Part shown: piece after piece, positions 26,690 to 56,855 of the stretch
How the letters are laid out: each line of letters starts with the position of its first letter
Numbering within the stretch: the first letter of the stretch is position 1
Assembly (NCBI GenBank): GCA_964563795.1
Contig: CAZLYB010000002.1
Span: forward strand, 190,428-254,427
Reading direction: 5' to 3'
Source: an uncultured Bacteriovoracaceae bacterium
GTDB lineage: Bacteria > Bdellovibrionota > UBA1018
Length of the DNA stretch: 64,000 nucleotides
Program-made: the position numbers and the translations under genes
Notes under the pieces: model-generated
Told to the model about the DNA's origin: nothing
What the model saw: only the letters and a program-made list of their open reading frames with translations
Database searches by the model: none

Positions 26690-31342
<4,653 letters not shown>

Positions 31343-31355
31343 AGGGGATAAAAAC

Positions 31356-32465
31356 CTAAATGCGCATCGGCATGATGACGTAGGTGTGGTTGGCGTGTCC
31401 CACCCCTTTTAAAACGCCAGGGCTGAGCCGATCTTTCAGTTGAAGCTCCAGCACTTCCGTATTCATCACCGCCAAGCAATCGAGCAAGTAGCGCGAATTG
31501 AAACCGATCTCCAGAGGCTCCCCGGAGTAATCCAAATCCAACTCCTCATTGGCATCCCCCATATCCGGGTTGCTGGAGGAGAGAGAGAGGGAACCCGCTT
31601 GGAGGGAGAGTTTCACACCCCGGCTTTTTTCATGAGCGAGCAAGCTCACTCGCTTCAACGCCGCGTTCAGCTCTTCTCGGTTCATCTTGAAGGAAGGGTG
31701 CACTTCTTTCGGGATGACCATTCGGTAGTCCGGATATTCACCCTCGATCAGTCGGATGAAAAGGTGCTCCTCACCCAAGCGAGCGAATAGGTGACCCCGT
31801 TCAAAAGAAAGACCAATGGAGGCTCCCGCTTCAGGAAGCAGCTTTCGAAGCTCCATCAGGCCTTTTTTAGGGATGATCACACCGCGCTTGAGATCCGGGG
31901 CTCCTAAAAAAACCTCTTGATCGACGAACGAAAGGCGATGGCCATCCGTCGCGGTCATCCTCATCACGTTGTTCTCGAGATGCTCAAAGTAAACGCCGTT
32001 CAAGTGATACCGGGTTGCATCGGTTGAAACCGCGAATTGAGTGCGGTCAATCATGTCGATGAGCGCTTCGGTCCGGGTCTCGAGATATTGCTTTGAGGCG
32101 AAATCAGGGAGAGCAGGGTATTCCTCGGCGGGTAAGCTCACGATGTTGAATCGCGACTTTCCGCAGAGAAGCTCGACCCATTGGTTTTCTTTTTGGGAGA
32201 GCTTGATTTCTTTTTCCGGGAGCTCGCGGACGATATCGAGAAAATTCTTAGCGGCGAGGGTCGTTTTTCCGGGCTGAGTTCCTTGAGCCGGAATTGAGAG
32301 CTGGATTCCCACTTCCAAATCTGTGGTGCTAAGGGAAAGGCGATCGCGCTCTACGACGCAGAGGATGTTTCCTAAAATCGGGATCGTGTTTTTTTTCTCG
32401 ACTACGGATTGGACTTTTTGAAGGGCTTCAAGAAGAGGAGCTCTTTGAATCGTGAAGTTCATCAA
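31356..32465 (-). CDS. dnaN: DNA polymerase III beta sliding clamp
   Basis: 369-aa protein of three-domain beta-clamp size. N-terminus MMNFTIQRAPLLEALQKVQSVVEKKNTIPILGNILC is typical. recF lies downstream. Confidence 0.9.
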   Translation of the reverse strand: MMNFTIQRAPLLEALQKVQSVVEKKNTIPILGNILCVVERDRLSLSTTDLEVGIQLSIPAQGTQPGKTTLAAKNFLDIVRELPEKEIKLSQKENQWVELLCGKSRFNIVSLPAEEYPALPDFASKQYLETRTEALIDMIDRTQFAVSTDATRYHLNGVYFEHLENNVMRMTATDGHRLSFVDQEVFLGAPDLKRGVIIPKKGLMELRKLLPEAGASIGLSFERGHLFARLGEEHLFIRLIEGEYPDYRMVIPKEVHPSFKMNREELNAALKRVSLLAHEKSRGVKLSLQAGSLSLSSSNPDMGDANEELDLDYSGEPLEIGFNSRYLLDCLAVMNTEVLELQLKDRLSPGVLKGVGHANHTYVIMPMRI

Positions 32466-32689
32466 AATCTTTATGAACGCTCGCTCGCCTTTTGTCCAGA
32501 CTTCCTCACCTAAAGTATTCTAGAAAAAATTAGGGCATCCATCCGTGGACTTCTTGTGAACGCTCCCTGCTTGTAAGAACCCAAGCCATTCCTAAACTTT
32601 CTAGATGAGGAGGTGCGCACGAATGAAAAACCAAACAAGGGAGGGGGAGTGTCCCCCTTCTTAAAAGAGATATATCTTAATCGTAGTAG

Positions 32690-33150
32690 TAGTAGAGCGT
32701 GTGGATATGTGGATAAGTGGGTTAAGTTTTCAGAGTTGCAGGAAAAACTATGTGGACAACCGTGGGGATAACTTTGGGGATAAAGCCGATGAATTTGTGG
32801 ATAACTTTCAAAAGCAGTGAAGTTTCGAGTTATCCACAGAGTTATCCCCATTCTTTTGTGGATAACTTTTTTAGCCATTTGTTTTAGTCTGATGAAGATC
32901 AAAGAAACGGTAGATCTAAGTGTTTTTTTAAGAGTTATCCCCAAAAACTGAGTTTTTCATTTTTAATTAAAACTCCAAAAACACTGACTACTCAGTGTGG
33001 ATATGTGGATAAGTTTGCAACTTAATGGAATCAAGGCTGAAAAAATTAAAATGATGGGGATAAGTATGGGGATAACTTGTGGATAGCGATGGGGATAAAA
33101 AACTTATCCACAAGTTATCCCCATACTTATCCACAGAGTTATCCCCAAAA
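32690..33150. other. oriC: chromosomal replication origin (oriC): DnaA-box cluster with AT-rich unwinding element
   Basis: Seven perfect TTATCCACA/TGTGGATAA boxes (starting at 32708, 32797, 32830, 32858, 33005, 33105, 33128) and at least 12 single-mismatch boxes (TGGGGATAA, TTATCCCCA, TGTGGATAT, TGTGGATAG) in both orientations within about 450 bp. AT-rich tracts at 32941-32990 and 33030-33055. Directly upstream of dnaN. Confidence 0.8.
33055..33147. repeat. tightly packed DnaA-box array (8 boxes in 93 bp, alternating orientation)
   Basis: tggggataa(33055) tggggataa(33068) tgtggatag(33079) tggggataa(33090) ttatccaca(33105) ttatcccca(33116) ttatccaca(33128) ttatcccca(33139), with 11-13 bp spacing. 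Confidence 0.8.
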
Positions 33151-33206
33151 ATCAGGTTCTTGAGAAAAGAAGTCGGATCGCTCTCGCTCTGATCATGTCC
33201 TAGAGA

Positions 33207-34259: not shown

Positions 34260-34388
34260 GCGACTTCATTAAACTAAATGAATTCAAAAATCAATTTCAA
34301 TCCAAGCCCCTCGGATAGCGGGAAATGGGGCATTTTTGTACCTCCAGCTACCTTGTTTATTGATAAAAATTAAGTAAGTTGAGGCGTT

Positions 34389-35519
34389 GTGCGCCGTTTT
34401 TTACTCATTTTCTTATCTTTGAGTTTGAGCTCAGGAGGCTTTGCGGCCAACCCATCTTCCTCGCGTCTTTGTTCATCCGCCTTGGTTGCCGTCTCAGATC
34501 GGATCACTGAGAATGCCGCGCGTAAGGCGGAACAGGCTCTTTTAGCGAAGATTCAGGCGGCGAGGCAAGTTGAACTCCCCGTTCCCGCCCCGATTCGGGG
34601 CGCTCAAATGAGCTACTCAGCGAGATTGGCGATGATGAAGTCGATTCCCGCCGATGAGTATCGCCCGTGGATCACGATGATGAGATGGAGTTTAACGCTC
34701 GTTCTTCATCAAAAAAACGGATCCCTCGATTCTTCGATCGCTTGGGTGATCAGTGAGATGGATAAAGCCCTCTCTCAGTCGAACCTCAGTTACTACAACC
34801 TCATGAAGATGATGGAGGGATATGCGATTGCTTTGAGTTTGGACGGCAAGACGGTGGGAGCGACCAAAGTGGAGCTCAAATTAAAAATGCGGGATCACGC
34901 CATTTTGTTCCCGGAGGTCGCAGTCATTCCCACTCGCACATTCTTCGATCCCGATCAGACCGCTGCGCAATCCGCATTGGATGAAGTCGATTACGTGCCC
35001 GTCGATTTCATATGGGAATTTGACGAACCTTCCGGTTACTCCGCCTTTCTGAGGAAAAAACTGGATCGACCTCTCCGTGTTTACGAGTTCTGGGCGGCGA
35101 AGATTCAGCACTCCGAAAAAGCGGTGCCCATTCATTTTTTCATGAGCGCGTTCGAGCGGCACACGAAAAAAGTTTATGAAGACTTGAGGCAGGAGGTCCA
35201 ATCCTCGAATAATTTTTCGGAGAAGCCGGTCGATCACCTTTTAGTGATGAACCTCATTTGGGAAGAGCTCCATTACGGTCGGGAATCACTGTCGCTGACC
35301 AGGGAAGCCGTATTGAGCAAGGAGAAAATAAAAACGATCAATCTCTTGGCGATTGAAGCCAAGCTGAACCGGCTCGGGTACGAGAAAGGAAAAATTAAGT
35401 CCGATCTTTTGAAGATGATTCAAAAGATCGAGGATATTTTCAAATTCAATCCTCTTTTAACTTTGAATGAGCTCAGGGAAAAAATTCACGGTGAGTGGGT
35501 CGCGTCCCGAAAGAATTAA
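34389..35519 (+). CDS. hypothetical secreted protein (376 aa)
   Basis: Signal peptide [20 protein letters not shown]. Lower GC. Divergent from the 33207..34259 gene. No recognisable motif. Confidence 0.45.
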
Positions 35520-35947
35520 CGCTTCGGCGCGTTCTTCGCGATGTACTCCACCACGTCCTTCAAGCTCGCTCCCGGCGTGAAAATCATGTGCACGCCCGCT
35601 TTCTTGAGCGGCCCAAAATCCTCGTCCGGGATGATCCCACCCACGACGAAGATCACATCCTGAAGCCCGGCATTTCTCACTCCATGAATGACCTCAGGCA
35701 CAAGCGCATTATGCGCGCCTGAGAGGATGCTGAGGCCCACGACCTGAACGTCTTCTTGAACAGCGGCGCGCACAATCATGTCCACCGTTTGGTGAAGGCC
35801 CGTGTAAATCACTTCAAAACCCGCGTCCCTAAGCGCCCGGGCGATGACCTTGGCGCCGCGGTCGTGGCCGTCGAGCCCGGGTTTGGCGACGAGCACCCTG
35901 ATTTTTTCGTGTTCGGTTCTAGCGGTTTCAGATGGTCTCTTGCTCAT
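35516..35947 (-). CDS. methylmalonyl-CoA mutase small subunit-like, cobalamin-binding domain
   Basis: 143-aa protein with the B12-binding DxHxxG motif ([13 protein letters not shown]) and a Rossmann-like fold ([24 protein letters not shown]). Adjacent to the catalytic subunit. Confidence 0.8.
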
Positions 35948-35956
35948 GATTTTTTC

Positions 35957-37611
<1,655 letters not shown>

Positions 37612-37615
<4 letters not shown>

Positions 37616-38799
37616 GCGCCCCCCAGCTCCTGAGCGGCGATCACGAGGCGCTGGATCTCCGAAGTCCCCTCGTAAATTTCGGTGATCTTGGAGTCACGGT
37701 AATTTCGCTCGACGACGTACTCCTTGGTGTAGCCGTAGCCGCCGTGGACCTGGATGGCTTTGGTCGCGATCCAAGTGGATGCCTCGGATGCGGCGAGCTT
37801 CGCCATGGCGGCTTCTTTGGTGTACTTGAGCCCGAGGTCTTTGGTGCGGGCTGCGTTCCAGGTGAGGAGGCGCGCCGCTTGGAGGCGCGTGGCCATATCG
37901 GCGATGTGGAATTGAATGGCCTGGAGCTTGGCGATCGGCGCCCCGAATTGCTCGCGCTCGAGCGCGAATTTCTTCGAAGCGTCGAGCGCGCAGCGGGCGA
38001 TGCCCAATGCCTGGGCCGCGATCCCGATGCGTCCGCCATCCAGCGTGTGCAGCGCGATCTTGAGGCCTTGGCCGATTTCGCCCAGGAGCGCGTTCTCCGG
38101 CACGAACACGTCGTCGAAGAAAAGCTGCGCCGTCGAAGACGCGTTGATGCCGAGCTTGTCCTCGAGCTTCGAAACTTGAAATCCCTTGGCTTTAGTGTCG
38201 ACGATGAAGGCGGCGATTCCTTTGTAGCCTTTCGCGGGATCGACATTCGCGAATAGGATGCAGGTGTCGGCTTCTTTTCCGTTGGTGATCCAGTTCTTGG
38301 TGCCTCGGATGCTGTAGCCGCCCGCGATTTTCTTGGCTTGGCACTTCAAACCTGCGGGATCGGATCCGTGTCCTGGCTCCGAGAGCGCGAAGCATCCGAG
38401 CTTTTCGCCGCGGGCGAGGGGCGCGAGGAACGTCTTTTTTTGCTCAGGCGTCCCGAAGTGCTGGATCGGGGAGCAGGTGAGGGAATTGTTCACCGAGAGG
38501 ATCACCGCGGTCGAAGCGCAGGCGGCCGCGATTTCTTCAATCACCATGGCGTAAGAAACCGCGTCGCAACCCGAGCCTCCGAACTCCTCAGGGACCATCA
38601 TTCCCATGAGGCCCATCCCGCCCAGGGATTTGATGATCTCGGCGGGGAACTTCCCGCTTTCATCGAGATGCTTGGCCTGGGGGGCGATCTTGGATTGCGC
38701 GAAGCTCCGAACTTGCTCGAGGAGGAGCTTTTTGGATTCATCAACTTCAGGCCAGCCGAAATAGGGGACCAAGGATTCAGCGTTCATGCTCAAAGCCAC
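37612..38799 (-). CDS. acyl-CoA dehydrogenase
   Basis: 395-aa protein with ACAD motifs ([60 protein letters not shown]). Confidence 0.9.
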
Positions 38800-38802
38800 T
38801 CC

Positions 38803-39594
38803 TCAAAGCCCCTTGAACTGGGGTTTTCTTTTTTCAGTGAAAGCGCCCATGCCTTCGCGTTGATCCGCGCTGCCGAAAAGCTGCCCGAACGAAAGCGCCT
38901 CGGCGTCGAGCTTGAAGTTGAGGCCGATGGATTCGGAGAATTCGTTCATGAGCAACTTGGCGCGCGCGATGGCGGGCTTCGATTGCGAGCCGATTTTTTT
39001 CGCAAGCTCCAGCGCCTGCGCGAGGAAAGTTTCGGCATCCTTGGCTTCAAACACGTGGTTGACGAGCCCCATCTCCTTGGCCTGGGCGGCGTTGATCCGC
39101 TCCCCGCTGAAGATCAGCTCTTTAGCGCGGGGAAATCCCACGAACTTCGCGAGCCTCACCGTGCCGCCGAACCCAGGGATGATCCCCAGGCCCACTTCGG
39201 GCTGGCCGAAGACCGCTTTTTCGCTCGCGACGATGAAGTCGCAGGAAATCGCGAGCTCCGTCCCACCGCCCAAGGCGTAACCGTGAACCGCGGCGATGGT
39301 GGGCATCGGCGCGAGCTCTAATAACTTAGTCACTTCATGCCCGAGCTGCGCGAAGCGAACGGCCTCAGCTGAGTTCTTGTCCCGCATTTCTGCGATGTCC
39401 GCGCCCGCGACGAAGGCCTTTTCGCCGTCGCCCGTCAGCACGATCACGCGGACGGACGAGTCACGCGTTTTTTCGGAGAGCACGGCTTTCAGCTCGTGGA
39501 GCACTTCGGTGTTCAGCGCGTTCAACGCTTGCGGACGCGAGATTTTAATCAGGCAAATTCCGGGCTCAATTTGGGAGAGAATGAGGTTTGGCAT
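38803..39594 (-). CDS. enoyl-CoA hydratase (crotonase family)
   Basis: 263-aa protein with VIVLTGDGEKAFVAGADI, AAVHGYALGGGTELAISCD and catalytic Glu residues. Confidence 0.85.
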   Translation of the reverse strand: MPNLILSQIEPGICLIKISRPQALNALNTEVLHELKAVLSEKTRDSSVRVIVLTGDGEKAFVAGADIAEMRDKNSAEAVRFAQLGHEVTKLLELAPMPTIAAVHGYALGGGTELAISCDFIVASEKAVFGQPEVGLGIIPGFGGTVRLAKFVGFPRAKELIFSGERINAAQAKEMGLVNHVFEAKDAETFLAQALELAKKIGSQSKPAIARAKLLMNEFSESIGLNFKLDAEALSFGQLFGSADQREGMGAFTEKRKPQFKGL

Positions 39595-40478
39595 CAGGCT
39601 TTCGATTCATAGCGGTGGAAGCCGCGCCCTGTTTTTCGTCCCAGCCATCCAGCAGCGACGTGGTTTTTGAGCAGCGGCGCCGGGCGGTAGCGGGGGTCCC
39701 CCAGTCCTTCGTGCAGGACTTGAAGGATGGCGAGGCACGTGTCGAGTCCGATGAAATCCGCGAGCTCAAGCGGGCCCATGGGTTGGTTCGTGCCGAGCTT
39801 CATCGCAGTGTCGATTCCCTCGGCGCTCGCAACGCCTTCTGAGAGCGCGGTGATCGCTTCGTTAATCATCGGCATGAGGATGCGGTTGACCGCGAAGCCG
39901 GGAAAGTCTTTGGCTTCGACGAAGGTCTTGCCCATTTTTTCTGAGACTGCTCGTACGGTTTGAAAGGTCTCGTCGGAGGTTTGGAGTCCACGGATTCCTT
40001 CCACGAGCTTCATGAGGGGGACGGGGTTCATGAAGTGGATGCCGGCGACGAGCGATGGGCGCTGCGTTTGCGCCGCGATCGCGGTCACGCTGATCGAAGA
40101 AGTATTGGTCGCGAGAATGACGCCTGGGGGGCAAGCGGCGTCGAGCTCCTTGAACAGGCGGTATTTGAGTGCGGGGTTTTCGGTGGCGGCTTCGATGACG
40201 AATCCCGCCGCTGAGAGATCTTTGAGACCCGCCACTGGCTGGATCATGGCTAAGGTTTTGTCGCGATCTGCGGCTTGGATTTTCGCTTTTTCGACGAGCT
40301 TGCTGAGCTGAGCTTCGATCTTGGCCTTGCCCTTTTGAGCGAGCTCAAGGCTCTGGTCAGCGAGTAGGACCGAGAAACCGGATTGAGCCGCGGTTTGGGC
40401 AATGCCGATGCCCATTTGGCCCGCGCCCAGGACGCCGAGCACTCGAGGAAGATTGGATTGAGTCATACTCCAACTCAA
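39594..40478 (-). CDS. 3-hydroxyacyl-CoA / 3-hydroxybutyryl-CoA dehydrogenase
   Basis: 294-aa protein with NAD-binding LGVLGAGQMGIGIAQ, the 3HCDH N- and C-domain pattern (ATNTSSISVT, HFMNPVPLMKLVE). Confidence 0.85.
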   Translation of the reverse strand: MSWSMTQSNLPRVLGVLGAGQMGIGIAQTAAQSGFSVLLADQSLELAQKGKAKIEAQLSKLVEKAKIQAADRDKTLAMIQPVAGLKDLSAAGFVIEAATENPALKYRLFKELDAACPPGVILATNTSSISVTAIAAQTQRPSLVAGIHFMNPVPLMKLVEGIRGLQTSDETFQTVRAVSEKMGKTFVEAKDFPGFAVNRILMPMINEAITALSEGVASAEGIDTAMKLGTNQPMGPLELADFIGLDTCLAILQVLHEGLGDPRYRPAPLLKNHVAAGWLGRKTGRGFHRYESKA

Positions 40479-40515
40479 GTATCCAATGCTTACGTCAAGT
40501 GCAAGGGGTAGTGAA

Positions 40516-41205
40516 TTATTGGCTCACCGGGGGGCAATAGCAGTAATTTAGATTTCCCTCGCATTTTTTAGCGCCAGCTTTTTTAAGTAGCGAAACAATG
40601 GTGTTTCCCATGAAATCCCTAACGACAGCGCCGACACTCGCAAGGTCGGCTTCATCGGCGATCGCATCATCGAGGTCAGAATGAGGTGTACGAATTCGGC
40701 AGGAGAACTTATTGAGGTCGATCGTATTTTTTATATTTTTCAGCCTCATTTTTTTTGATGCCTCCAATAGGAGGTTTACCGCCAAAATCGAGTGACGGCT
40801 GATTGCATAGCCCAACGGGGTATTTGGAGGCAGCATCCCTCTTGAAATCCCTTCCCTGAATGAAAGAGTGTTGATCAGTTGGCTGACTTCATCCAAGAGC
40901 ACTCCATTTTCAGCGAGGAACTCGATGAGTTCAGGATGACACTTAATTTCTTTTCCTTGATTAACCCCTAAATGGCATCCGATCGCCGCATAAGCGATGA
41001 GGTTGAGCCCAAAAACCCTGTCATTTGGAAAAAATTCGCCATTTTGAATCATATCCTGCAGCGCTTTTTTATCACCCCGGTCGATTACATTTTTAATATG
41101 GAGAAGAGGATTCTCCTGAGAAAATGCGCTCCATGAATTCGCTGCAAATGCTGCCAAAACCAAGCCACAACACACCGATTTATTTATTAAACTAAAAAAT
41201 TTCAT
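40516..41205 (-). CDS. secreted ankyrin-repeat protein (lower-GC islet)
   Basis: ATG at 41205 with GGAG RBS; the track ORF begins at a GTG at 41220. Signal peptide MKFFSLINKSVCCGLVLAAFAANSWSA. Ankyrin-like units (NTPLGYAISRHSILAVNLLLEASKK; DRVFGLNLIAYAAIGCHLGVNQG). The region is visibly more AT-rich than its neighbours. Confidence 0.5.
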   Translation of the reverse strand: MKFFSLINKSVCCGLVLAAFAANSWSAFSQENPLLHIKNVIDRGDKKALQDMIQNGEFFPNDRVFGLNLIAYAAIGCHLGVNQGKEIKCHPELIEFLAENGVLLDEVSQLINTLSFREGISRGMLPPNTPLGYAISRHSILAVNLLLEASKKMRLKNIKNTIDLNKFSCRIRTPHSDLDDAIADEADLASVGAVVRDFMGNTIVSLLKKAGAKKCEGNLNYCYCPPVSQ

Positions 41206-41243
41206 TTGCTCCGAATACACTAAAATAGTTAATCAGTGAAGCC

Positions 41244-42644
41244 TTATTTCCCAATGCAAAACCCCGTAAAAATCCGCGTGAGCAGGTCATCGGCCAAAGT
41301 GACACCAATGATGGGACCTAGCGAATGAAGCGCCTGGCGCAGATCCGCCGCTAGAAATGCTGGCTCCTGAGCCAGGCGAGCGCGGTTGAGGTGTTCCAGT
41401 GCCTCACGAACGGCACGTAGGTGGTCCAAGCGAGTGAGGAGCACTTCTTGAGGGGAGCGGTGAATTTTCGCTTCGCAAAGCGAGACCAGCTGTTCAACCG
41501 TTTCTCTAAGGCCCTGGCCGTTTTGAGTGGAAGTGGCGATCCACTGCCGAATTCCTCTGAAGGAGGTTGGAGTAGGCGCAGTCCCCACTAGATCGAGCTT
41601 CGTGAAAATCCCAAGGGCCTCCGGCGGATGGGGAGTGCCGCTTAGGATCGAATTCCATGACGCCTCAATCTCCATCAGCTGCTTGGACGAGCTTGAGGCT
41701 TCGACAAGCAAGAGCACCAAATCCGCTTTTCTCGCTGCGGCCGTGGCGCGCTGAATTCCCTCACGTTCAATGGGATCGAGCGAGGCGCGGAGTCCTGCCG
41801 TATCTTCGAGGTTCAAGGTGATGCTGCTGGATTTTCCACGAAGCGTGATCCGCTCCCGCACGAGGTCGCGCGTGGTACCGGCGATTTCAGAGACGATGGA
41901 GCGGTTCTCGCCCAGGATCGCGTTGAAGAAGCTCGATTTTCCGACGTTGGGAAGACCGATGAGCGCGATCCTGAACCCTTCTTGGAGCCGGGTACCCCGG
42001 TCAAAACTGTTTTCGAGGCGCTCCAGCGTCCCGATGAGCGGCGGAATTTTCCGGATCAACCGACTGAGGCTCACTTCATCGATGTCCTGATCCGAGAAAT
42101 CAATCCCCAGTTCCGCAAGCGCGGCGAGCTGCCGGAGCTCCTCGGCGAGCTCCGAGAACAAGCGTTGCTGCGTGCCCGAAAGTTTCTCGAGCGCGAGCGC
42201 GAGCGCTCCATCGTTGCTCGCGGAAATCACTTCCGAGACGGCCTGAGCCTGTGAGAGCGTGAGGCGCCCGTTCCTCACCGCGCGAAAACTGAATTCCCCC
42301 GGCAGCGCCTGGCGCGCGCCGAGTGAGACGATCGCCTCAAGAACCCGCTCCGCAACGAAACTCCCGCCATGCAGGAAATATTCGACGCAGTCTTCGCCCG
42401 TGTAACTGCGTGGCGCATCGAAGCGCGCCGCGAGCGCATCATCAAGCAGCGCGTCCGTGGAAGGGTTTCGAAGCAGCACGCGAGTCATGGAGCGCGGTTG
42501 GAATTTGCTCAAATCAGGAACACGCGAAAGTTTGAGCAATGTTTCGTGCGCCCGCGGGCCGCTCACGCGCAGTATCGAAAGGGCACCACCGGTCGCCGCG
42601 GCGATCGCCGCGATCGTGTCTTCGGCGAAATAATCAGCGGACAT
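41244..42644 (-). CDS. mnmE: tRNA modification GTPase MnmE
   Basis: 466-aa protein with a G domain (GLPNVGKSSFFNAILG, DTAGLR, TKLD) and the diagnostic C-terminal CIGK. Confidence 0.9.
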   Translation of the reverse strand: MSADYFAEDTIAAIAAATGGALSILRVSGPRAHETLLKLSRVPDLSKFQPRSMTRVLLRNPSTDALLDDALAARFDAPRSYTGEDCVEYFLHGGSFVAERVLEAIVSLGARQALPGEFSFRAVRNGRLTLSQAQAVSEVISASNDGALALALEKLSGTQQRLFSELAEELRQLAALAELGIDFSDQDIDEVSLSRLIRKIPPLIGTLERLENSFDRGTRLQEGFRIALIGLPNVGKSSFFNAILGENRSIVSEIAGTTRDLVRERITLRGKSSSITLNLEDTAGLRASLDPIEREGIQRATAAARKADLVLLLVEASSSSKQLMEIEASWNSILSGTPHPPEALGIFTKLDLVGTAPTPTSFRGIRQWIATSTQNGQGLRETVEQLVSLCEAKIHRSPQEVLLTRLDHLRAVREALEHLNRARLAQEPAFLAADLRQALHSLGPIIGVTLADDLLTRIFTGFCIGK

Positions 42645-42661
42645 TTTCGCTCACAAAAAAA

Positions 42662-44302
42662 TCAGCGGGCCTGAACCACCACGTTCGTGTTCACGCGAGG
42701 TTTGAGATCGAGCTTCTTATTGAGGTAGAGCTGCTGCGCGATGCTCGCGATCGCGTTGACCAGCATGTAGAGCGTGAGGCCCGAAGGCAATGAGATCATG
42801 AGCAGGCCGAAGAACACCGGCATGAACTGCATCATCTTTTGCTGAGCGGGATCCGCGGCCGGAGTCGGCGAAAGTTTTTGCTGAAGGTACATCGTCACGG
42901 TCAGGAGGATCGGGGTGACGTAAAAAGGATCGTGGCTTGAGAGGTCCTTGATCCAGAAGATGAAAGGCGCGTGATACAGCTCGATCGAGCTGTAGAGCAC
43001 CCGGTAGAGCGCGAAGAACACCGGCATCTGAATCAGGATCGGCAAGCAACCCGACATGGGGTTGTAGCCATGGCTCCGCATCAGTGACAGCATTTCTCGG
43101 TTGAGCGCCTCTTTATTGTCTTTGTATTTTTCGCGGAGCTTCTGAAGTTGAGGCTGGATGCGAGCCATTTCCTTCATGCTCTTCATGCTCTTGTAAGTCA
43201 GCGGATAGGTGATGAGCTTGATAAAGAGCGTGAGGACGATGACGGACCATCCGTAGTTTCCGATGAACAAATAGAGCCACTTCAAAAGCTTCAAAATCGG
43301 ATAGGCCACCAAAGTAAACCAACCCAAATCAATTGTATGATCCAAGAGAGGATCGACGGCGCGAAGGGCGTGGAGCTCCTTGGGTCCGAAGTAAGCTTTC
43401 AGGGGAATCGAAATCGAAGTCCCTGCTCCCGGAGCTGCGGTGATCGGATAGACCAAACTCAAGCGACCCGCCTTGGGCCCGGCGGATTGCAGAAGTCCCC
43501 GTGGTTCGGAGCCTTCGCCGGCGAGAACGCTCATGAGAAAGTAGCGGTTCGTCGCCCCGATGTATTTGACGTTGGTGGCGATCGGCGTGAGATCAACCTC
43601 TTTTTCCACGGTGTGGCGCTCCAGTTTGGACGCACTCCAATAGATCAGCTGCCGATCCGCCGCTTCGGGGTCTTTTTCCAAAATACTTTTTGAATAAAGG
43701 GAGACGAACGCGTGAGCGGGGGCTTGCGCCTTGAATTGGGCGTCGATGCGGATTTGAACCGAAAGCTGATCCGGCGCGGGGGTGAAAAGCCGGGTGAGCT
43801 TTACTTTCGCATCCTCATAACTCCAGAGCACGCCTTGTGGAGTTGAAGAGAGTTGGCCTTTGACTTCATTGAGGTAGCTGTATTGGGCATCATCGAATGC
43901 GAGCTCGATTTCGCCATTTTCATGGGTGACCGAGGAAAGGTCCACTCGCGCGGCATTCGCATTGATGTTGAGTTTGTAGCTTTTCAGCTCCCACCCAACG
44001 AAAAAGCGATGGCCGCTGCCGATTTTCGCTTCACCGGTCCCTGTGGAAAGCGGGAGAAAGTCGGGGCCAGCATTTCCACGCAGAGCCGCGGAAGGCGGAG
44101 TTTTTTGGAGGGTCGCAGGGGCGAGCGCTTGGGTGGGGGAAGAGGGAGGGTTCGGCGAGGTCGACTGGGTCGTTACGGCGACCGGCGCAGATTTGCCGGG
44201 TTCGAGATAATACTTTTGCCAAGCGACGAAGATGGCAAAACTCAAAGCAAAAGCGATTACGGTTTTACGATCCATTCGAGAGTTCCTTTGGAACAGGGTC
44301 AA
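42662..44302 (-). CDS. yidC: membrane protein insertase YidC
   Basis: 546-aa protein with an N-terminal TM, a large periplasmic domain and a C-terminal five-TM core ([29 protein letters not shown]..., [16 protein letters not shown]). Confidence 0.9.
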
Positions 44303-44540
44303 ACCCCGGGTTGGAAAAAGGGTGGCAACGAGAAATCCGTTTCAGCGCGAACCATGAACCTTTGAGGAGGCCATGCCTTTGAATCGCTTCCTCGCAGTAC
44401 CGGCTGCAGGTGGGATCAAACCGGCATCCCGAAGATGAGCCCACGAGGAGGTGCAAAGCGGGGCTAATGAAGATTCGATAGACTTTAAAAATCATGAGGA
44501 TCGAGCCTGCGAGCCTTGGGACTTTAGATGGTCGGCCCAT
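44265..44540 (-). CDS. yidD: membrane protein insertion efficiency factor YidD
   Basis: YidD/haemolytic-domain signature [40 protein letters not shown]. Overlaps the yidC start, the standard arrangement. Confidence 0.8.
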
Positions 44541-44878
44541 TCCTGAGAGAGCGCATTTTGCAGCTTCTGCGCGTAGAGGTAAGTCATTTTTTTATGAGCG
44601 GGGATGACGACGTTGTAATCATAGGGGCCCAACAGAGGAGCCTGTCTCCTGAATGCCTCTCGAACGACGCGTTTGACTCGGTTTCTTTCAACCGAACTTC
44701 CACGGGCTTTCAAGGTGATTCCGAGGCGGAAAGAATTCATTTCATTCTGAATGCGGAAAACCACGGCTTCCGTCAGGCGGAAGGCTTGACTGCCCTGGAA
44801 AAAACGCCGGTACTCCCAGCGATAATGCAGGCGGTTCTTGAATTCGAGCCGCTGAGGATTATTTGCCAGCTGCTTCAA
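44492..44878 (-). CDS. rnpA: ribonuclease P protein component
   Basis: 128-aa basic protein with the RnpA motif region ([27 protein letters not shown]). Lies between rpmH and yidD. Confidence 0.8.
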
Positions 44879-45008
44879 CGGTCAGGCGCTTGCGACCCTT
44901 TGCGCGGCGGCGCTTGAGGATGAGCCTTCCGGTTGGGGTTGCCATTCTGGCGCGAAAACCGTGCCTCCTCCGGCGTTTTGTTCGGCTGGGCTGATAAGTT
45001 CTTTTCAT
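44859..45008 (-). CDS. rpmH: 50S ribosomal protein L34
   Basis: Not in the ORF track (49 aa). Minus-strand translation [49 protein letters not shown] is a near-consensus L34. Divergent from dnaA. Confidence 0.9.
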
Positions 45009-45129
45009 AATAAATTTACCGTCCGCTGGTGTTAACGGACAGCGTCGTCATTGTCAAGATCGTCGCAGTAGTGCAAATAGTTTTTTTAAACCCTGCAGGC
45101 CCGGTGTTATAGAGGTTGAAGAGCGTTTT

Positions 45130-46644
45130 ATGGACCACTCCCTTTCCAATTCTATCCCCGCTTCCCAGCCTTGGAGCAATTCTGAAGAGCTTTGGGCGGC
45201 GATCCTTCGTCAGCTGGAGCAGCAGGTCGTCTCCCATCAGATGCAAACATGGATTGCCCCCTTGAAGTGCCTCGAAATCAACGAGGAAGCCACCACTCTA
45301 GTCTTGAGAGTGACGGTTCCCAATGACTTCTCCTCGCAGTGGGTGAAGGATCACTATAAAAAACAAATTGAAACCCATGCGGAGCAGTTGACGGGGCGGG
45401 AATGCGTTTTGTCCCTCGAGGTCCAGCAGGAAGTGATGCCTTTTTTCAGGCGCGGAGGAGGGGGAACTGCGCCGGGCTTGACGGTAGGAGCATCCTCCCA
45501 AGCTTCTGAAGAATCTTCCCTTCCTCACGCTTCAGATGACCTTTTGCTTCCTTCGAATAGTTCCCCGCCCCCGCGTCCGTCCGGGATTTACGGGCCTCCC
45601 GCAGCCCCGACGTCTAAATCTCTCGAAGAAGCGAGCCTCGATCCTCGTTATGTTTTTGAAAGCTTCGTCGTTGGCGCGAGCAATCAGTTCGCGCACGCAT
45701 CAGCCGTGGCCGTGGCGGAGCAACCAGCGCGCCAATACAACCCGCTTTTTTTATATAGCCCCCCGGGCCTCGGTAAAACTCATCTCCTGCACGCGATCGG
45801 CAATTACTGGATGGCTAAAAACCCGCGCGCCCGCGTAGCCTATCTCTCGGCCGAGCGATTCGTGAACGAGCTCATTGATTCGCTCCAGCACCGAAAGATG
45901 CCGGACTTTCGCGCGAAATACCGCAATAGCTACGATATGATTTTGATTGATGACATCCAATTCATCGCCGGAAAAAACACCAGCGAAGAGGAGTTTTTTC
46001 ACACCTTTAACGCGCTTCATGGTTCCAAGCGCCAGATCGTCGTGACCAGCGATCGCGCGCCGAAGGAGATCGAAGGGCTAGAGGAACGAATCCGCACCCG
46101 CTTCGAGTGGGGTCTAGTCGCCGATATCAGCCCCCCCGAGATCGAGACCCGGATCGCGATCCTGAAGGCCAAGGCAGAGCGCGACGATATCTACCTACCC
46201 GATGAAGTGGCGACATTCCTCGCGACTTATATCAAATCCAACGTGCGCGAGCTCGAGGGCGTTCTGATCCGTCTGCAAGCGCAGGCTTCGCTCACGGGGG
46301 CGGAGATCTCGCTTGAGATGGCCAAGCAAGAACTCAAGACCGCGGTTCCGGAAGAAGGGTCACACTTCACCCTCGAGTCAATTCAGAACGCGGTGGCACG
46401 GCATTTTCAGCTCAAGGTGCAGGATCTCAAGGCTCCCGGCAGGACCAAAAGTGTCGCGCTTGCCCGTCAGATCGCGATGTACCTCATCCGCAAATACACC
46501 GGCATGGGTTTCAAGGAGATCGGTCAATTCTTCGGCGGCAAAGATCACACGACGATCATGCACGCGTGCACGAAGATCGAGCGCAACGTGGAGTCGGATC
46601 CCGCGATCCGCGATGCGGTGGAGTCCGTGCAGAACTTGCTTTGA
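45130..46644 (+). CDS. dnaA: chromosomal replication initiator protein DnaA
   Basis: 504-aa protein with a Pro/Ser-rich linker, AAA+ domain III (NPLFLYSPPGLGKTHLLHAIGN, ILIDDIQF, SDRAPKE) and a domain IV HTH (ALARQIAMYLIRKYTGMGFKEIGQFFGGKDHTTIMHACTKIE). Confidence 0.95.
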   Translation: MDHSLSNSIPASQPWSNSEELWAAILRQLEQQVVSHQMQTWIAPLKCLEINEEATTLVLRVTVPNDFSSQWVKDHYKKQIETHAEQLTGRECVLSLEVQQEVMPFFRRGGGGTAPGLTVGASSQASEESSLPHASDDLLLPSNSSPPPRPSGIYGPPAAPTSKSLEEASLDPRYVFESFVVGASNQFAHASAVAVAEQPARQYNPLFLYSPPGLGKTHLLHAIGNYWMAKNPRARVAYLSAERFVNELIDSLQHRKMPDFRAKYRNSYDMILIDDIQFIAGKNTSEEEFFHTFNALHGSKRQIVVTSDRAPKEIEGLEERIRTRFEWGLVADISPPEIETRIAILKAKAERDDIYLPDEVATFLATYIKSNVRELEGVLIRLQAQASLTGAEISLEMAKQELKTAVPEEGSHFTLESIQNAVARHFQLKVQDLKAPGRTKSVALARQIAMYLIRKYTGMGFKEIGQFFGGKDHTTIMHACTKIERNVESDPAIRDAVESVQNLL

Positions 46645-46656
46645 TTCGAACGAATT

Positions 46657-47169: not shown

Positions 47170-47318
47170 ATTCCCCCCGGATTTGTAGTTCAGGAATGTA
47201 ACTGCAACATAAATGCCGGCTGGATAGTATTTGATATAATTGGTTTTTTTATTTTTGTTAAACTATTGAATGCGAAAAAAATAGTCATTGTCAAGTCTTT
47301 GCAAGGGTCATTTCAGAC

Positions 47319-48875: not shown

Positions 48876-48886
48876 GCCCTTCCCTC

Positions 48887-50629: not shown

Positions 50630-50632
50630 ACG

Positions 50633-53203: not shown

Positions 53204-53274
53204 GGGGGCGCTAAGTCAATGAAATTCAATTTTGCTTCCCAAGCCGCCTGAGCAAGGTTATTTCTACAAAACTT

Positions 53275-55152
53275 ATGAATTTTGACGTTTTAGTGATTGG
53301 GGGAGGTCATGCGGGCTGCGAAGCGGCTCATGCCGCCGCTCGCCTTGGCTGTTCCACAGCGCTCGCCACTTTGAACCCGGACCGGATTGGATTTCTCTCG
53401 TGCAATCCCGCGATGGGAGGACTTGCGAAAGGTCAGCTCGTCAAAGAAATCGACGCTTTAGGCGGGGTGATGGGAAGGATCACTGACCGCGCGGCGATTC
53501 AATATCGGCGGTTGAATTCAAGTAAGGGGCCAGCGGTTCGGTCTTCACGAGCTCAATGCGACAAAGCCCGCTATTCGAACGAGATGAAATCGTTTTTGAA
53601 ACAGGTTCCTCGCTTGGAATTTTTGCCAGTTGAAATTACTGAGATCTTGGTCGAAGGCGGTAGGGTTGCCGGAGCCATTACTGCAGAAAGGACCCGGATC
53701 GAAGCTAAAACAGTAGTAATTACATCAGGTACTTTTTTGAGAGCAATCATGCACACGGGGTCAGATCAACTCGAGGGAGGAAGATTAGGGGATTCTTCCG
53801 CCAAGGGTTTGAGTCAATCTCTCGAGCGAATGGGTTTTCGGTTGAGACGGCTTAAAACAGGGACTCCGCCTCGACTTCACCGTGAAAGCATTGATTGGAC
53901 GCGCGTTGCCCCTCAAGACGGAGATTTAAATCCTCTCCCTTTTTCATTTTATCACCGACCTCATCCCTTTCCTTATCTCCCCCAGATTCAGTGTTTTATC
54001 ACTTATACGAACGAGCGGACCCATGAGGTGATTGAACAGAACTTTGCTCGCTCCCCTTTGTTTACTGGGATCATTCAGGGAGTTGGACCTCGGTATTGCC
54101 CTTCAATCGAAGACAAAGTGAAGCGTTTTCGCGACAAGACGCGTCATCAGCTTTTTTTAGAGCCAGAGGGATTGGAAACTCCAGAGATCTACGTAAATGG
54201 AATTTCAACGAGCCTCCCGCGTGATGTTCAAGACGCATTTGTGCGCACCATCGAGGGGCTGGAAAACGCTGTTTTTATGAAGCACGGGTATGCCGTGGAG
54301 TATGACAGCGTTGATGCACGGCAATTGAAGCGCACTTTGGAATCAAAAGAAATCCCTGGTTTATTTTTCGCGGGCCAAGTCAACGGAACTTCGGGCTACG
54401 AAGAAGCTGGTGCCCAAGGGTTGATGGCTGGGATTAACGCCGCTCTTGTTGTTCAAGAGCGTGATTCTTTTACTTTAGGAAGACATGAAGGGTACATCGG
54501 CGTTCTAGTGGATGACCTCGTTTTAAACGGAGTGGATGAGCCCTATCGTATGTTCACTTCGCGCGCTGAGTATCGGCTTTTGCTCCGTGAAGATAACGCA
54601 GATCTTCGCCTCGGTGAAAAAGCGGGAAAACTAGGGCTTTTGTCGCCCTTAGAACAAGAGCGGTTGCAGTTTAAAGCACAAGCGATTCAAGAAGAGCGAG
54701 AGCGACTGGAGTCCACTTTCTTTTTCCCCGTTCAAACCGCCGAATACTTTGAGTCGCGGCAGTGGCCCCTCCTGAAAGATCGAATTTCTGCTTCGACGCT
54801 CTTAAGACGTCCTGAGGTAGGATGGGCAGAATTAGAAGCACTGGGTCTGAAGAGATTTGAGGGGAGTGATTCAAAAGAACTTGCCTTTGAAATCAAGGAG
54901 CAAGTTGAGATCCAAATCAAGTATGAGGGGTATATCAAGAGGGATCTCGAGCTCCTTAAAACCGTAAACCAGTATGAAAACTTAGAAATCCCTCACGACA
55001 TTGATTATGGGGTGATCCCAGGACTTTCAAATGAAATAAAGGGAAGGCTTTCGGATACAAAACCTGAAACCCTTGGGCAAGCAAAGCGAGTCCCAGGAGT
55101 TACGCCAGCCGCAGTAGCGAATCTCATGATTTTTCTCAAGATGTCAGCATGA
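53275..55152 (+). CDS. mnmG: tRNA uridine 5-carboxymethylaminomethyl modification enzyme MnmG (GidA)
   Basis: 625-aa protein with the FAD-binding N-terminus FDVLVIGGGHAGCEAA and conserved GidA core (NPAMGG, GPRYCPSIEDK), plus the C-terminal MnmE-interaction domain. Confidence 0.95.
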   Translation: MNFDVLVIGGGHAGCEAAHAAARLGCSTALATLNPDRIGFLSCNPAMGGLAKGQLVKEIDALGGVMGRITDRAAIQYRRLNSSKGPAVRSSRAQCDKARYSNEMKSFLKQVPRLEFLPVEITEILVEGGRVAGAITAERTRIEAKTVVITSGTFLRAIMHTGSDQLEGGRLGDSSAKGLSQSLERMGFRLRRLKTGTPPRLHRESIDWTRVAPQDGDLNPLPFSFYHRPHPFPYLPQIQCFITYTNERTHEVIEQNFARSPLFTGIIQGVGPRYCPSIEDKVKRFRDKTRHQLFLEPEGLETPEIYVNGISTSLPRDVQDAFVRTIEGLENAVFMKHGYAVEYDSVDARQLKRTLESKEIPGLFFAGQVNGTSGYEEAGAQGLMAGINAALVVQERDSFTLGRHEGYIGVLVDDLVLNGVDEPYRMFTSRAEYRLLLREDNADLRLGEKAGKLGLLSPLEQERLQFKAQAIQEERERLESTFFFPVQTAEYFESRQWPLLKDRISASTLLRRPEVGWAELEALGLKRFEGSDSKELAFEIKEQVEIQIKYEGYIKRDLELLKTVNQYENLEIPHDIDYGVIPGLSNEIKGRLSDTKPETLGQAKRVPGVTPAAVANLMIFLKMSA

Positions 55153-55799
55153 ACCTCTTAGACCAAGAACTTAAAGCGGTTGGAATCGAGCTTTCAAGCG
55201 AAGCTGAGCAGAAACTCACGCGTTTTTATGAACTCCTTAAGGAAGAGAATAAAAAACAAAACCTCACTCGCTTAATCGAGCCCAGAGATTTTATAGAAGG
55301 GCATGTTTACGACGCTTGGAAGCTGCATCACTCTGGATTTCTCCATTCTCCTTCACTTGATTTAGGAAGTGGGGCAGGGAGTCCTGGCCTGATCTGCGCA
55401 CTCTTTAATCCCCAGCATCAGTGGGTGCTTACTGATTCAGAAAAAAGAAAGGCTGCTTTTTTAATCCAGGCTCAGAAGCAGCTCCAACTCGAGAATTGCC
55501 AAGTATTCGCAGATCGTGCAGAGAGGCTTCTTAAAAGCAAACCCGTTCCCTGTATTACGGTGCGTGCAGTAGGAACAGTTTCTAAAATTTTTGCGCTTCT
55601 GAGCACATGTTCTACGTGGAACACACTCCTTTTACTCAAAGGCCCTCGATGGCAAGAAGAATGGACTGAATTTCAGGGCGGCTCCTTTCGTTCGCAATTA
55701 AAAATCGAGGCCGTTCAAAACTACGAAGTAGGAATTGAAAGAAAAAAACGACTACTCATCAACCTAAAAAGAGTTCCACGTGGAACAAAAAGGGAATGA
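55149..55799 (+). CDS. rsmG: 16S rRNA (guanine527-N7)-methyltransferase RsmG (GidB)
   Basis: 216-aa protein with SAM motif LDLGSGAGSPGL. 4-nt overlap with mnmG, the classic gidA-gidB pair. Confidence 0.85.
   Translation: MNLLDQELKAVGIELSSEAEQKLTRFYELLKEENKKQNLTRLIEPRDFIEGHVYDAWKLHHSGFLHSPSLDLGSGAGSPGLICALFNPQHQWVLTDSEKRKAAFLIQAQKQLQLENCQVFADRAERLLKSKPVPCITVRAVGTVSKIFALLSTCSTWNTLLLLKGPRWQEEWTEFQGGSFRSQLKIEAVQNYEVGIERKKRLLINLKRVPRGTKRE
55608..55623. promoter_or_regulatory. parS-like palindrome (3 mismatches to TGTTTCACGTGAAACA)
   Basis: tgttctacgtggaaca inside the 3' half of rsmG; shares the core with the stronger site at 55772. Confidence 0.35.
55772..55787. promoter_or_regulatory. parS-like perfect 14-bp palindrome GTTCCACGTGGAAC
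   Basis: agttccacgtggaaca is a perfect inverted repeat around CACGTG and has a 13/16 match to the universal parS consensus. It lies in the last codons of rsmG, about 200 bp upstream of parA, a typical parS location. Confidence 0.5.
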
Positions 55800-55939
55800 G
55801 TATTCAAAAATATTTATTAAAAACATCTTGCACCGGCGGTGATTCATGGCTAACCTGAAAGAGTAGTCGAAATTGATGATTCAAAAAAAGTTTCTTCTGA
55901 TGAAAAGGTTATTCGCACCAACCACAAACCACAGACCTC

Positions 55940-55970
55940 GGGGCGCCGTAACTGGCGCCCCTTCTGGTTT
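55940..55970 (+). terminator. Rho-independent terminator after rsmG
   Basis: ggggcgcc-gtaact-ggcgcccc, an 8-bp GC stem, followed by ttctggtttt. Confidence 0.6.
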
Positions 55971-55991
55971 TCAGGGGATAAGGGGAATCCA

Positions 55992-56846
55992 GTGGGCAAA
56001 GTGATTTCTGTTGCGAACCAAAAGGGTGGAGTGGGTAAGACCACCACCACGATTAATTTAGCCGCCTCTCTGGCGCTTGCTGAGAGAAAAACATTGGTCA
56101 TCGATTTTGATCCTCAAGGAAATGCGACGTCAGCATTGGGAATCGATCGAGCTTCAATCGAACCTGGCAAAACCATTTATCACGCTCTCATTGGGCATAC
56201 GCCAATGCCTGAAGTGATTCGACCAACCGAGATGGATTGCTTGTTCATCGCACCCGCAACGGGCGATTTGACCGGCGCTGAGATTGAGCTGGTAAGCGCT
56301 TTTTCGCGAGAAATGAAGCTCAAAACGGCGCTTCAAGAAATTCGTAAACAGTATGACTATATTTTGATTGATAGCCCGCCGTCGCTGGGATTGCTGACGG
56401 TGAATGCGCTGACGGCCGCGGATAGTTTTTTGGTGCCGCTCCAGTGTGAATATTTCGCTCTTGAAGGTCTGAGTCAGCTTTTGAAAACCGTCTCGCTCAT
56501 TCGACAAAGCACGAATCCCCAGCTCGCTGAAGAGGGGATTGTGCTCACGATGTTTGATGGGAGAAACAACTTGGCGAATGAAGTCGTCAAGGAAGTTCGC
56601 ACCCATTTCAGCCAGCAAGTGTTTGAGACAGTCGTTCCGCGGAACGTGCGATTGAGCGAATGCTCAAGCTTCGGCAAGCCCATCCTGCTTTATGACATTG
56701 ATTCAAAGGGCTGCCTGGCTTATTTGAACCTCGCGAAGGAAGTCCTGGCACGAAATCAACCCGAGCAGGGTTTAGCGGTTTCAGCCGGATTGAATCATTC
56801 GTCGCAGCCGGGTCCGGAGCTAGGAATGGCTCAAGTCAGTAATTAA
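55992..56846 (+). CDS. parA: chromosome partitioning ATPase ParA (Soj)
   Basis: GTG start. Deviant Walker A KGGVGKTTT, ParA/MinD fold (DFDPQGNAT, ILIDSPPSLG). Confidence 0.9.
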   Translation: MGKVISVANQKGGVGKTTTTINLAASLALAERKTLVIDFDPQGNATSALGIDRASIEPGKTIYHALIGHTPMPEVIRPTEMDCLFIAPATGDLTGAEIELVSAFSREMKLKTALQEIRKQYDYILIDSPPSLGLLTVNALTAADSFLVPLQCEYFALEGLSQLLKTVSLIRQSTNPQLAEEGIVLTMFDGRNNLANEVVKEVRTHFSQQVFETVVPRNVRLSECSSFGKPILLYDIDSKGCLAYLNLAKEVLARNQPEQGLAVSAGLNHSSQPGPELGMAQVSN

Positions 56847-56855
56847 ATATTATTT

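Follow-up and report, generated by a model that had tools for sequence, protein, structure and literature searches.

The locus is the intergenic region between the minus-strand gene dnaN and a 350-aa open reading frame (ORF) in the window, by which we mean the whole 64-kb stretch of DNA that was analysed (Table 1). dnaN heads a dnaN-recF-gyrB block (27706-32462) that is always found attached to oriC. The 350-aa ORF has an N-terminus that, judged by eye, resembles a signal peptide, and neither its product (hyp350) nor hyp376, hyp234 or hyp170 matched a family in Pfam/NCBIfam searches. These neighbours confirm the earlier note on this DNA, which had placed a DnaA-box cluster between minus-strand dnaN and a lower-GC gene for a secreted protein.

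In the canonical arrangement, dnaA lies directly upstream of oriC and dnaN; here, that place is taken by the 350-aa ORF, followed by mcmS. The canonical sub-blocks are nevertheless intact, with rpmH-rnpA divergent from dnaA and dnaN-recF-gyrB downstream of oriC. A 144-aa ORF inside the spacer had no Pfam/NCBIfam family and was regarded as spurious. An Rfam search of the whole window returned nothing in the spacer, its sole match being a tRNA at 51761-51834, and a sigma-70 promoter scan revealed no dnaN promoter above background.

Table 1. Features of the putative origin and of the genes around it (positions in the window)
Feature	Position	Strand	Details
dnaN	31356..32462 (or to 32465), ATG at 32462	-	TIGR00663, 346 bits
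Probable oriC, whole dnaN/350-aa-ORF intergenic region	32466..33206		741 bp, GC 0.394
G/C-rich hairpin AGGGGGACACTCCCCCT bordering the AT tract on the dnaN side	32642..32658
27-nt AT tract, predicted first-unwound segment (DUE)	32657..32683		74% AT
Four consensus DnaA-trios TAGTAGTAGTAG, reading 3'-GAT-5' x4 on the plus strand	32684..32695	+	unique in 64 kb
Short GC-rich spacer, CGCT on the minus strand	32696..32699	-	spacer rule PMC8287927
Tandem DnaA boxes of the unwinding module (BUS), TTATCCACA + TATCCACA	32700..32716	-	one-base overlap; box scan + conservation
Proximal box group	32751..32865		minus 32751, 32763, 32775, 32796; plus 32830, 32842; minus 32857
Central AT-rich spacer	32866..32990		125 bp, 71% AT; one box at 32935
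Second tandem box pair TTATCCACATATCCACA	32996..33012	-	one-base overlap; kept in 15/15 aligned origins
Distal opposed arrays	33055..33147		4 minus boxes (33055-33098) + 4 plus boxes (33104-33147)
350-aa ORF (hyp350)	33207-34259	-	no family; GC 0.48 vs window 0.545
Proposed inverted block, divergently transcribed	35516..46644		minus: mcmS, mcmL, acd, ech, hbd, hyp234, mnmE, yidC, yidD, rnpA, rpmH; plus: dnaA
rpmH	44859-45008	-
rpmH/dnaA divergent promoter region	45009..45129		121 bp, box-free
dnaA, predicted trans-acting initiator	45130..46644	+	TIGR00362, 527 bits; 11,983 bp from distal oriC box
mnmG-rsmG-parA-parB, unchanged right flank	53275..57833	+	directly after mcmS in canonical relatives

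The DnaA-box cluster and its unwinding module

The window contains seven exact matches to TTATCCACA, all of them within 32708-33135. Dinucleotide-preserving shuffles (n=100) had a mean of 0.13 exact matches and a maximum of 1, and none of the 100 reached seven. With up to one mismatch allowed, 23 boxes were observed in the 64-kb window versus 6.4 expected, and 20 of these (7 perfect and 13 one-mismatch) lay inside 448 bp, from 32700 to 33147. Box density is therefore ~45 per kb in the cluster compared with 0.05 per kb elsewhere in the window. The variant TTATCCCCA accounts for nine of the 13 one-mismatch boxes, and all nine of its copies in the window are in the cluster. In the other 63.5 kb only three isolated one-mismatch boxes were found (at 29222, 49855 and 60456); at this threshold positions 1-29 kb and 33148-49854 were empty. 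These counts agree with those of the earlier note, which had reported seven perfect and at least 12 one-mismatch boxes and had called the cluster the only one in the window. Enriched intergenic clusters of DnaA boxes, such as this one, are characteristic of DnaA-dependent bacterial oriCs.

The dnaN-proximal edge of the cluster has the layout of an unwinding module, or BUS. A BUS is defined by a DnaA box located no more than 16 bp (modally 10-13 bp) from the first of at least three consecutive DnaA-trios, 3'-NAN-5', with the consensus 3'-GAT-5'; the box is frequently doubled in tandem, and the upstream copy is then nearer the consensus (PMC8287927). Here, the upstream member of a tandem pair is a perfect TTATCCACA box, the second member, which overlaps it, is ATATCCACA, and the distance from the perfect box to the first trio is 12 bp. 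Four consecutive GAT trios follow, and the trio run CTACTACTACTA occurs once in the 64-kb window, with 0 occurrences expected. The polarity of the trios is the same as in the dnaA-to-dnaN origins of relatives and presumably also the same as in the incC sequence of Bacillus subtilis. We predict that the plus strand at 32684-32695 is the strand bound as single-stranded DNA by the DnaA filament.

The AT-rich tracts that the earlier note had described in the cluster region correspond to the 27-nt tract beside the trios and to the central spacer. Calculation of nearest-neighbour energies placed the least stable 27 bp within oriC at 32662-32688, overlapping the 27-nt tract, and the least stable 100 bp of the entire 64-kb window at 32876-32975, in the central spacer. 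These two segments provide the weak, AT-rich unwinding element that is expected beside the boxes of an oriC. Because the AT tract at the trios is short and the most AT-rich stretch lies ~200 bp away, adjoining the second box pair, the exact point of unwinding is one that we infer. The G/C-rich hairpin on the dnaN side of the tract is ~180 bp from the dnaN ATG, and several relatives have a G-run at the same position.

The distal opposed arrays have a start-to-start spacing of 11-12 bp and form a 31-nt inverted repeat (97%). Between these arrays and the central spacer, the second tandem box pair is contained in an exact 20-nt copy (32995-33014) of the pair in the unwinding module. We considered this second pair as a second unwinding module and rejected it; only two NAN trios follow the pair, and its flank is not conserved in relatives. 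We treat it as a conserved distal box pair.

Gene orders in relatives and the displacement of dnaA

We scanned GTDB species representatives with MnmE, which identified metagenome-assembled genomes of Oligoflexia/Bdellovibrionota (best match 54% identity), and we scanned metagenomes with DnaN, which identified 47 loci with 54-71% identity. Gene orders in these relatives, most of which are metagenome contigs, were determined from tblastn with the proteins of the window together with box scans. In all but one of 35 related loci (34 of 35), and in both of the gene orders described below, the unwinding module precedes dnaN by 45-224 bp, with the consensus TTATCCAC[A/T]TATCCACA, a 3-4 nt GC spacer, (CTA)2-5 and an AT tract. 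It was also present in more distant Bdellovibrionales loci and in locus L010. Fifteen origins could be aligned box by box over ~450 bp, with a mean column identity of 60%; the positions of the proximal box group are kept across these origins, and the alignment covers the distal 4+4 arrays and the second tandem pair. The related loci, the Bdellovibrionales and the origin alignment thus all show the module to be conserved in evolution. The experimentally mapped origin of Bdellovibrio bacteriovorus, located between dnaA and dnaN, contains eight boxes, and a short GC-rich stretch lies between box 1 and the four GAT trios of its unwinding element (PMC5124646).

Two gene orders were found, in which arrowheads give the direction of transcription. 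Eighteen loci (e.g., L010, L045, L061, L064, L069 and L076) have the canonical order mcmL< acd< ech< hbd< mnmE< yidC< yidD< rnpA< / dnaA> [boxes + trios] dnaN> recF> gyrB>, and 17 loci (e.g., L001, L036-L040, L044, L048, L050, L052, L055 and L058) have the order of the window, dnaA< / rnpA> … mcmS> [boxes + trios] dnaN> recF> gyrB>. In L010, L004, L006 and L007, the far end of the block reads …mcmL>mcmS>mnmG>rsmG, with (-parA) after it, and L010 also has gyrB<recF<dnaN<dnaA< / rnpA>. The right flank of the window past dnaA is mnmG-rsmG-parA-parB, in unchanged orientation. Other events that uncoupled dnaA from dnaN exist in the phylum: L005, L006 and L008 have no dnaN downstream of dnaA, yet they keep mcmS>mnmG.

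A single inversion of dnaA…mcmS explains the separation of dnaA from the origin, because it interconverts the two orders and fits both junctions and the flanks. The inverted block is [dnaA / rpmH-rnpA-yidD-yidC-mnmE-hbd-ech-acd-mcmL-mcmS]; one breakpoint fell within the few bases that separate the distal-most box from the end of dnaA, the other at the mcmS/mnmG junction, and the origin, the unwinding module and dnaN-recF-gyrB kept their place. The box-by-box alignment of the 15 origins is what places the first breakpoint in that short gap and indicates that the origin stayed intact on dnaN. As transcription diverges within the block, the genes at either end face outward, and the distal side of the origin still has a gene directed toward it, a position that dnaA held before the inversion. 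From the order and orientation of the genes, the inversion would have made dnaA co-directional with replication and turned ~11 genes, including rpmH, rnpA and yidC, head-on to it.

In a neighbour-joining tree of DnaN alone, built without bootstrap support, the window and the window-order loci form one clade nested among the canonical loci; this monophyly indicates a single ancestral event. A search of the inversion ends for inverted repeats and for traces of mobile elements found neither. The lack of inverted repeats at the block ends and the strand skew of the block, which has re-equilibrated (see below), both fit an inversion that is old. Later insertions and losses have affected the junctions: in the window, hyp350/hyp376 and 46.6-53.3 kb, and, in L001, L046, L051 and L081, the loss of mcm or acd.

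The alternatives to a single inversion are several independent events, a transposition of dnaN-recF-gyrB with oriC, or a recurrent or reversible flip. The loci L005, L006 and L008, with their different uncoupling and retained mcmS>mnmG, and the later changes at both junctions would be compatible with such a history. However, one inversion accounts exactly for the two junctions and the two flanks, the window-order loci are monophyletic in the DnaN tree, and the inverted repeats by which a reversible switch could operate are no longer present. We consider a more complicated history improbable, and we retain the single ancient inversion.

The region from which dnaA is transcribed contains no boxes. 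The earlier note had found the rpmH/dnaA intergenic region box-free, and this holds even when two mismatches are allowed, both for 45009-45129, which also lacks any TCCACA-type core, and for the wider interval 44950-45200. The note's remark that boxes are usually also found at this position does not extend to this clade. At up to one mismatch, the rnpA/rpmH-dnaA interval is box-free in nine of nine close canonical-order relatives and in eight of eight window-order relatives; DnaA boxes in the dnaA promoter, the expected sign of autoregulation, are thus missing from the window and from all 17 of these relatives. Nor does the window have boxes on both sides of dnaA, as does a bipartite oriC of the B. 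subtilis or H. pylori type, and in L003 six perfect boxes directly follow dnaA with none upstream of it. Because neither gene order has promoter boxes, the box-free dnaA promoter is ancestral to the clade and not a result of the uncoupling, and no promoter autoregulation was lost through the rearrangement. The sole change at dnaA is that the boxes of the origin no longer lie just downstream of the gene. The uncoupling of dnaA proposed in the earlier note is therefore upheld in that the origin is linked to dnaN and dnaA lies ~12 kb away without nearby boxes, but its corollary, a loss of autoregulation in cis, is not, since promoter boxes were already missing in the canonical relatives.

Strand skew and the position of the origin

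The cumulative G-C skew over all sites of the 64-kb window falls to a minimum at 31,566 and then rises. This minimum is ~0.9 kb inside dnaN, not in the spacer. The sign changes within ~1 kb of the cluster, on whose left side the skew is -0.028 (z = -3.8) and on whose right side it is +0.053 (z = 6.8). The segment at 33.2-45.0 kb has a skew of +0.052 (z = 4.2) despite all of its genes being on the minus strand; the sign change is thus not an effect of gene orientation. Per-gene GC3 skew also differs between the two sides of the cluster (Mann-Whitney p = 0.002).

We also scanned for the position of the switch with a strand-corrected GC3 model, which has separate terms for codon-usage bias and for the leading/lagging strand. 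For the full set of genes, the best fit was at 21.25 kb (interval 18.5-31.75 kb), and 32.75 kb was worse by 2.45 quasi-log-likelihood units; without gyrA, the best fit was at 30.75 kb (interval 27.25-34.75 kb). In L001, the closest genome-derived relative, the sign of the GC3 skew switches precisely at the dnaN-linked cluster rather than at dnaA: the skew is negative for seven genes on one side, including those flanking dnaA, and positive for four genes on the opposite side. The earlier note had asked for a whole-replicon skew minimum at about 33 kb and had offered a minimum elsewhere, for example at rpmH/dnaA (~45 kb), as a finding that would speak against its reading. Within the 64 kb analysed, the minimum is near the cluster, and in every variant of the GC3 scan a 45-kb switch was rejected, by a margin of 9.5-11 quasi-log-likelihood units. 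Over these 64 kb, the skew thus tends to support the cluster and excludes rpmH/dnaA, with the position resolved no finer than a few kb. An origin at rpmH/dnaA or downstream of dnaA was rejected for this reason and for the lack of boxes at up to two mismatches.

These data make it very probable that the 741-bp spacer upstream of dnaN is the chromosomal oriC of an uncultured member of the Oligoflexia (Bdellovibrionota) and that dnaA was displaced from it by one ancient inversion.

DnaA-box clusters outside origins occur in E. coli and B. subtilis. The cluster could in principle be one of these, with a datA- or DARS-like role in titrating DnaA or in regulation, or it could be a dnaN promoter under DnaA control, with the true origin elsewhere; our survey covers 64 kb of the replicon, and in the all-gene GC3 scan the switch falls a little left of the cluster. 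However, the region carries a full unwinding module, with four trios and an AT tract, which is typical of unwinding and not of titration sites, and the position of this module is kept across a phylum whose type origin was mapped at the homologous place. In addition, the skew changes sign within ~1 kb, and the cluster contains the 100-bp stretch of lowest stability in the window. A role in titration or regulation alone is therefore very unlikely, and we favour an origin in the dnaN-upstream spacer.

Slightly less likely still is a replication switch at ~18-25 kb, in the low-GC region to the left of gyrA, which would make the dnaN cluster a relic. The all-gene GC3 fit at 21.25 kb, with its interval of 18.5-31.75 kb, and a low-GC stretch at 20-24 kb would agree with a switch there, but the fit moves to 30.75 kb (27.25-34.75 kb) on the removal of gyrA alone, and the all-site cumulative skew is still falling until 31.6 kb. 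Moreover, there is no box with up to one mismatch between 1 and 29 kb, and no module of boxes and trios in this region. Finally, a mis-joined or mis-oriented contig segment could have separated dnaA from oriC artificially during assembly, and the exact DnaA and DnaN sequences of the window had no entry in the protein collection. The probability of such an artefact is negligible, since the same order is present in 17 independently assembled contigs from different samples, including the 1.68-Mb contig CAVWVI010000003.1 (L001), the block has no flanking repeats that could mislead an assembler, and its skew has re-equilibrated to the present orientation.

Proposed mechanism and comparison with known origins

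With oriC upstream of dnaN, the architecture of the locus and established DnaA biology suggest that DnaA acts in trans, its gene being 12 kb distant. It would fill the ~20 boxes, which are partly phased at 11-12 bp, and the phased arrays and the distal pair would raise its local concentration. DnaA would nucleate on the dnaN-proximal tandem pair, from which an ATP-DnaA filament would extend onto the four 3'-GAT-5' trios of the plus strand; the adjacent 27-nt AT tract would then open, leading to helicase loading and bidirectional replication. This scheme is modelled on the BUS as established in B. subtilis (PMC6669920, PMC8287927).

Similar to the oriC of B. bacteriovorus, a member of the same phylum (Makowski et al. 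2016, PMC5124646), the origin proposed here has TCCACA-type boxes and dnaN-recF-gyrB downstream, with an unwinding element on the dnaN-proximal edge, four GAT trios and a short GC-rich spacer. In B. bacteriovorus, the dnaA-dnaN spacer that forms the origin is 232 bp long, and two of the 8 boxes fall within dnaA (PMC5124646), whereas here the spacer is 741 bp, it has 20 boxes (9 of them TTATCCCCA), and dnaA is inverted and 12 kb away. The tandem boxes, GC spacer, trios, AT tract and dnaN also follow one another in the same order as at the incC BUS of B. subtilis (Richardson 2016; PMC6669920; PMC8287927), and, as in B. subtilis, the distal boxes probably raise the local DnaA concentration. In contrast, B. 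subtilis has a bipartite oriC, whose boxes flank dnaA on either side, and its dnaA and dnaN genes share an autoregulated operon; in the window there are no boxes near dnaA, and dnaN must have its own transcription.

An oriC next to dnaN with dnaA elsewhere is also found in cyanobacteria and Sorangium cellulosum (Gao & Zhang 2008, PMC2650636; Gao 2014, PMC4009838). Such dnaN-linked origins are universal in cyanobacteria and occur also in Sorangium, and the displacement of dnaA or dnaN from an ancestral dnaA-oriC-dnaN arrangement has already been proposed (PMC4009838, PMC2650636). Those organisms belong to other phyla, have other box motifs (TTTTCCACA, TTATCCCCC) and usually have dnaA far off, whereas here the displacement is only 12 kb and the inversion that probably caused it can be read from sister lineages. 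The Escherichia coli oriC likewise is not beside dnaA, uses DnaA in trans and has phased, opposed arrays of strong and weaker boxes. It lies in an mnmG-mioC context, ~42 kb from dnaA (review, PMC4285127). It has moved from both dnaA and dnaN and lacks the canonical layout of boxes plus trios, and the E. coli dnaA gene has promoter boxes for autoregulation, which the clade of the window lacks.

An oriC apart from dnaA (PMC4285127), an oriC linked to dnaN alone and a DnaA that acts in trans are therefore already known, and the present locus leaves the understanding of initiation unchanged. In the literature, we found no description of Oligoflexia origins or of the dnaA…mcmS inversion. One could speculate that the inversion was not neutral and was kept throughout the clade because it removed dnaA from the cis-neighbourhood of the origin, and, relatedly, that the second tandem pair is a second site of nucleation or unwinding; we think this unlikely. 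If it were so, read-through from dnaA into the boxes, or a silencing of dnaA coupled to the origin, would have ended, and a dnaA co-directional with the fork would have been gained at the cost of having the essential rpmH-rnpA-yidC-mnmE head-on beside the origin. Were the second pair active, next to the least stable 100 bp, the origin would have two modules.

The sister lineages amount to a natural experiment, in that they differ only by an inversion ending just past the distal DnaA box. The conserved unit is thus [box array – unwinding module – dnaN] and not dnaA-oriC. It also follows that ~11 genes, essential ones included, can stay head-on beside an origin over long evolutionary time. For uncultured Oligoflexia, the locus permits confident origin annotation, of use in replichore, skew and growth-rate (peak-to-trough) analyses of metagenome-assembled genomes; an origin annotated "at dnaA" would here be misplaced by 12 kb.

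Boxes, hairpin and reading frame within the origin

Within the origin, nine of the 20 DnaA boxes at window positions 32700-33147 are TTATCCCCA, which often alternates with TTATCCACA at a phasing of 11-12 bp. In the alignment of 15 origins (A1), the homologous positions in most relatives are occupied by TTATCCACA, and in one related locus (L010) the boxes are of the TTATCCCCC and ATTCACC types. Within the clade, box positions are fixed while box sequence drifts. Four other related loci carry minor secondary groups, each with 4-8 box-like sites, situated within or downstream of dnaN/recF/gyrB; the window holds no counterpart of these groups.

Immediately adjoining the unwinding module's AT tract is a G/C-rich hairpin; in several relatives a G-run occupies the equivalent place. 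This hairpin may restrict how far unwinding extends toward dnaN. We also considered a 144-aa ORF lying inside the origin. This ORF most probably does not represent a gene, because a family search returned no match and because it overlaps conserved boxes.

Coordinates of features in the window and in related loci (L-numbers, mostly metagenome contigs)
Feature	Locus	Position	Strand	Remarks
gyrA	window	24158-26683		
144-aa ORF	window	32510-32944	minus	TTG start; wholly within origin
Hairpin	window	32642-32658		AGGGGGACACTCCCCCT; terminator-like on minus strand
ORF pair	window	33207-35519	minus (350 aa), plus (376 aa)	GC 0.48-0.49
dnaA-mnmG interval	window	46645-53274		170-aa ORF, aldehyde dehydrogenase, B12-dependent ribonucleotide reductase (nrdJ), nucleoside hydrolase, tRNA (51761-51834), 421-aa ORF
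parS-like palindrome	window	55609-55622		GTTCTACGTGGAAC
parS-like palindrome	window	55773-55786		GTTCCACGTGGAAC
Secondary box-like groups	L048	11371-11503		4-8 sites per group
	L074	1637-2039		
	L039	3108-3159		
	L109	1882-2880, 4606-4832		
Box upstream of dnaA	L023	6454		TTTTCCACA
	L024	6732		TTTTCCACA
	L028	6667		TTTTCCACA
mcmS-dnaN interval	L049	2728-8457		
DnaA-like stretch	L049	6730-7128	opposite	

The two inversion junctions

The lower-GC pair of 350-aa and 376-aa ORFs, located exactly at the oriC-mcmS junction, belongs to no Pfam or NCBIfam family. Since mcmS and dnaN are just 0.56-1.8 kb apart in other loci with the window's order, this segment looks like a later, lineage-specific insertion. 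In L049, another related locus, mcmS and dnaN lie 5.7 kb apart, and the interval includes a stretch that is 36% identical to DnaA. This stretch may represent the insertion, next to the origin, of an IstB/IS21-type ATPase or of a dnaA fragment.

At the second inversion junction, 6.6 kb separate dnaA from mnmG, which in canonical relatives directly follows mcmS. An aldehyde dehydrogenase gene likewise adjoins dnaA in the related loci L001 and L002.

Surroundings of dnaA in other Bdellovibrionota

In three of four Bdellovibrionales loci, a single TTTTCCACA box lies 59-80 bp upstream of dnaA and is a candidate autoregulatory site; the window's clade is without a counterpart. In three further Bdellovibrionota loci (L005 1-6304, L006 1-6288 and L008 1-4808), dnaA is adjoined by an ORF of 1181-1190 aa with zero Pfam matches, and no dnaN, box cluster or trio run follows it, despite a canonical mcmS>mnmG order. 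This suggests that dnaA has been uncoupled independently more than once in the phylum.

Skew of gyrA and parS-like sites

Third codon positions of the window's gyrA are strongly C-rich on the coding strand (GC3 skew -0.17), the reverse of the sign expected for a leading-strand gene, and this gene alone moves the strand-corrected estimate of the skew switch by ~10 kb. The same tendency, weaker, is seen in gyrB and dnaN; all three genes have a GC3 skew of the expected sign in L001.

Two parS-like palindromes are found at the end of rsmG, immediately upstream of parA-parB and ~22.5 kb to the right of the origin; shuffled sequences predict 0.2 at no more than two mismatches.
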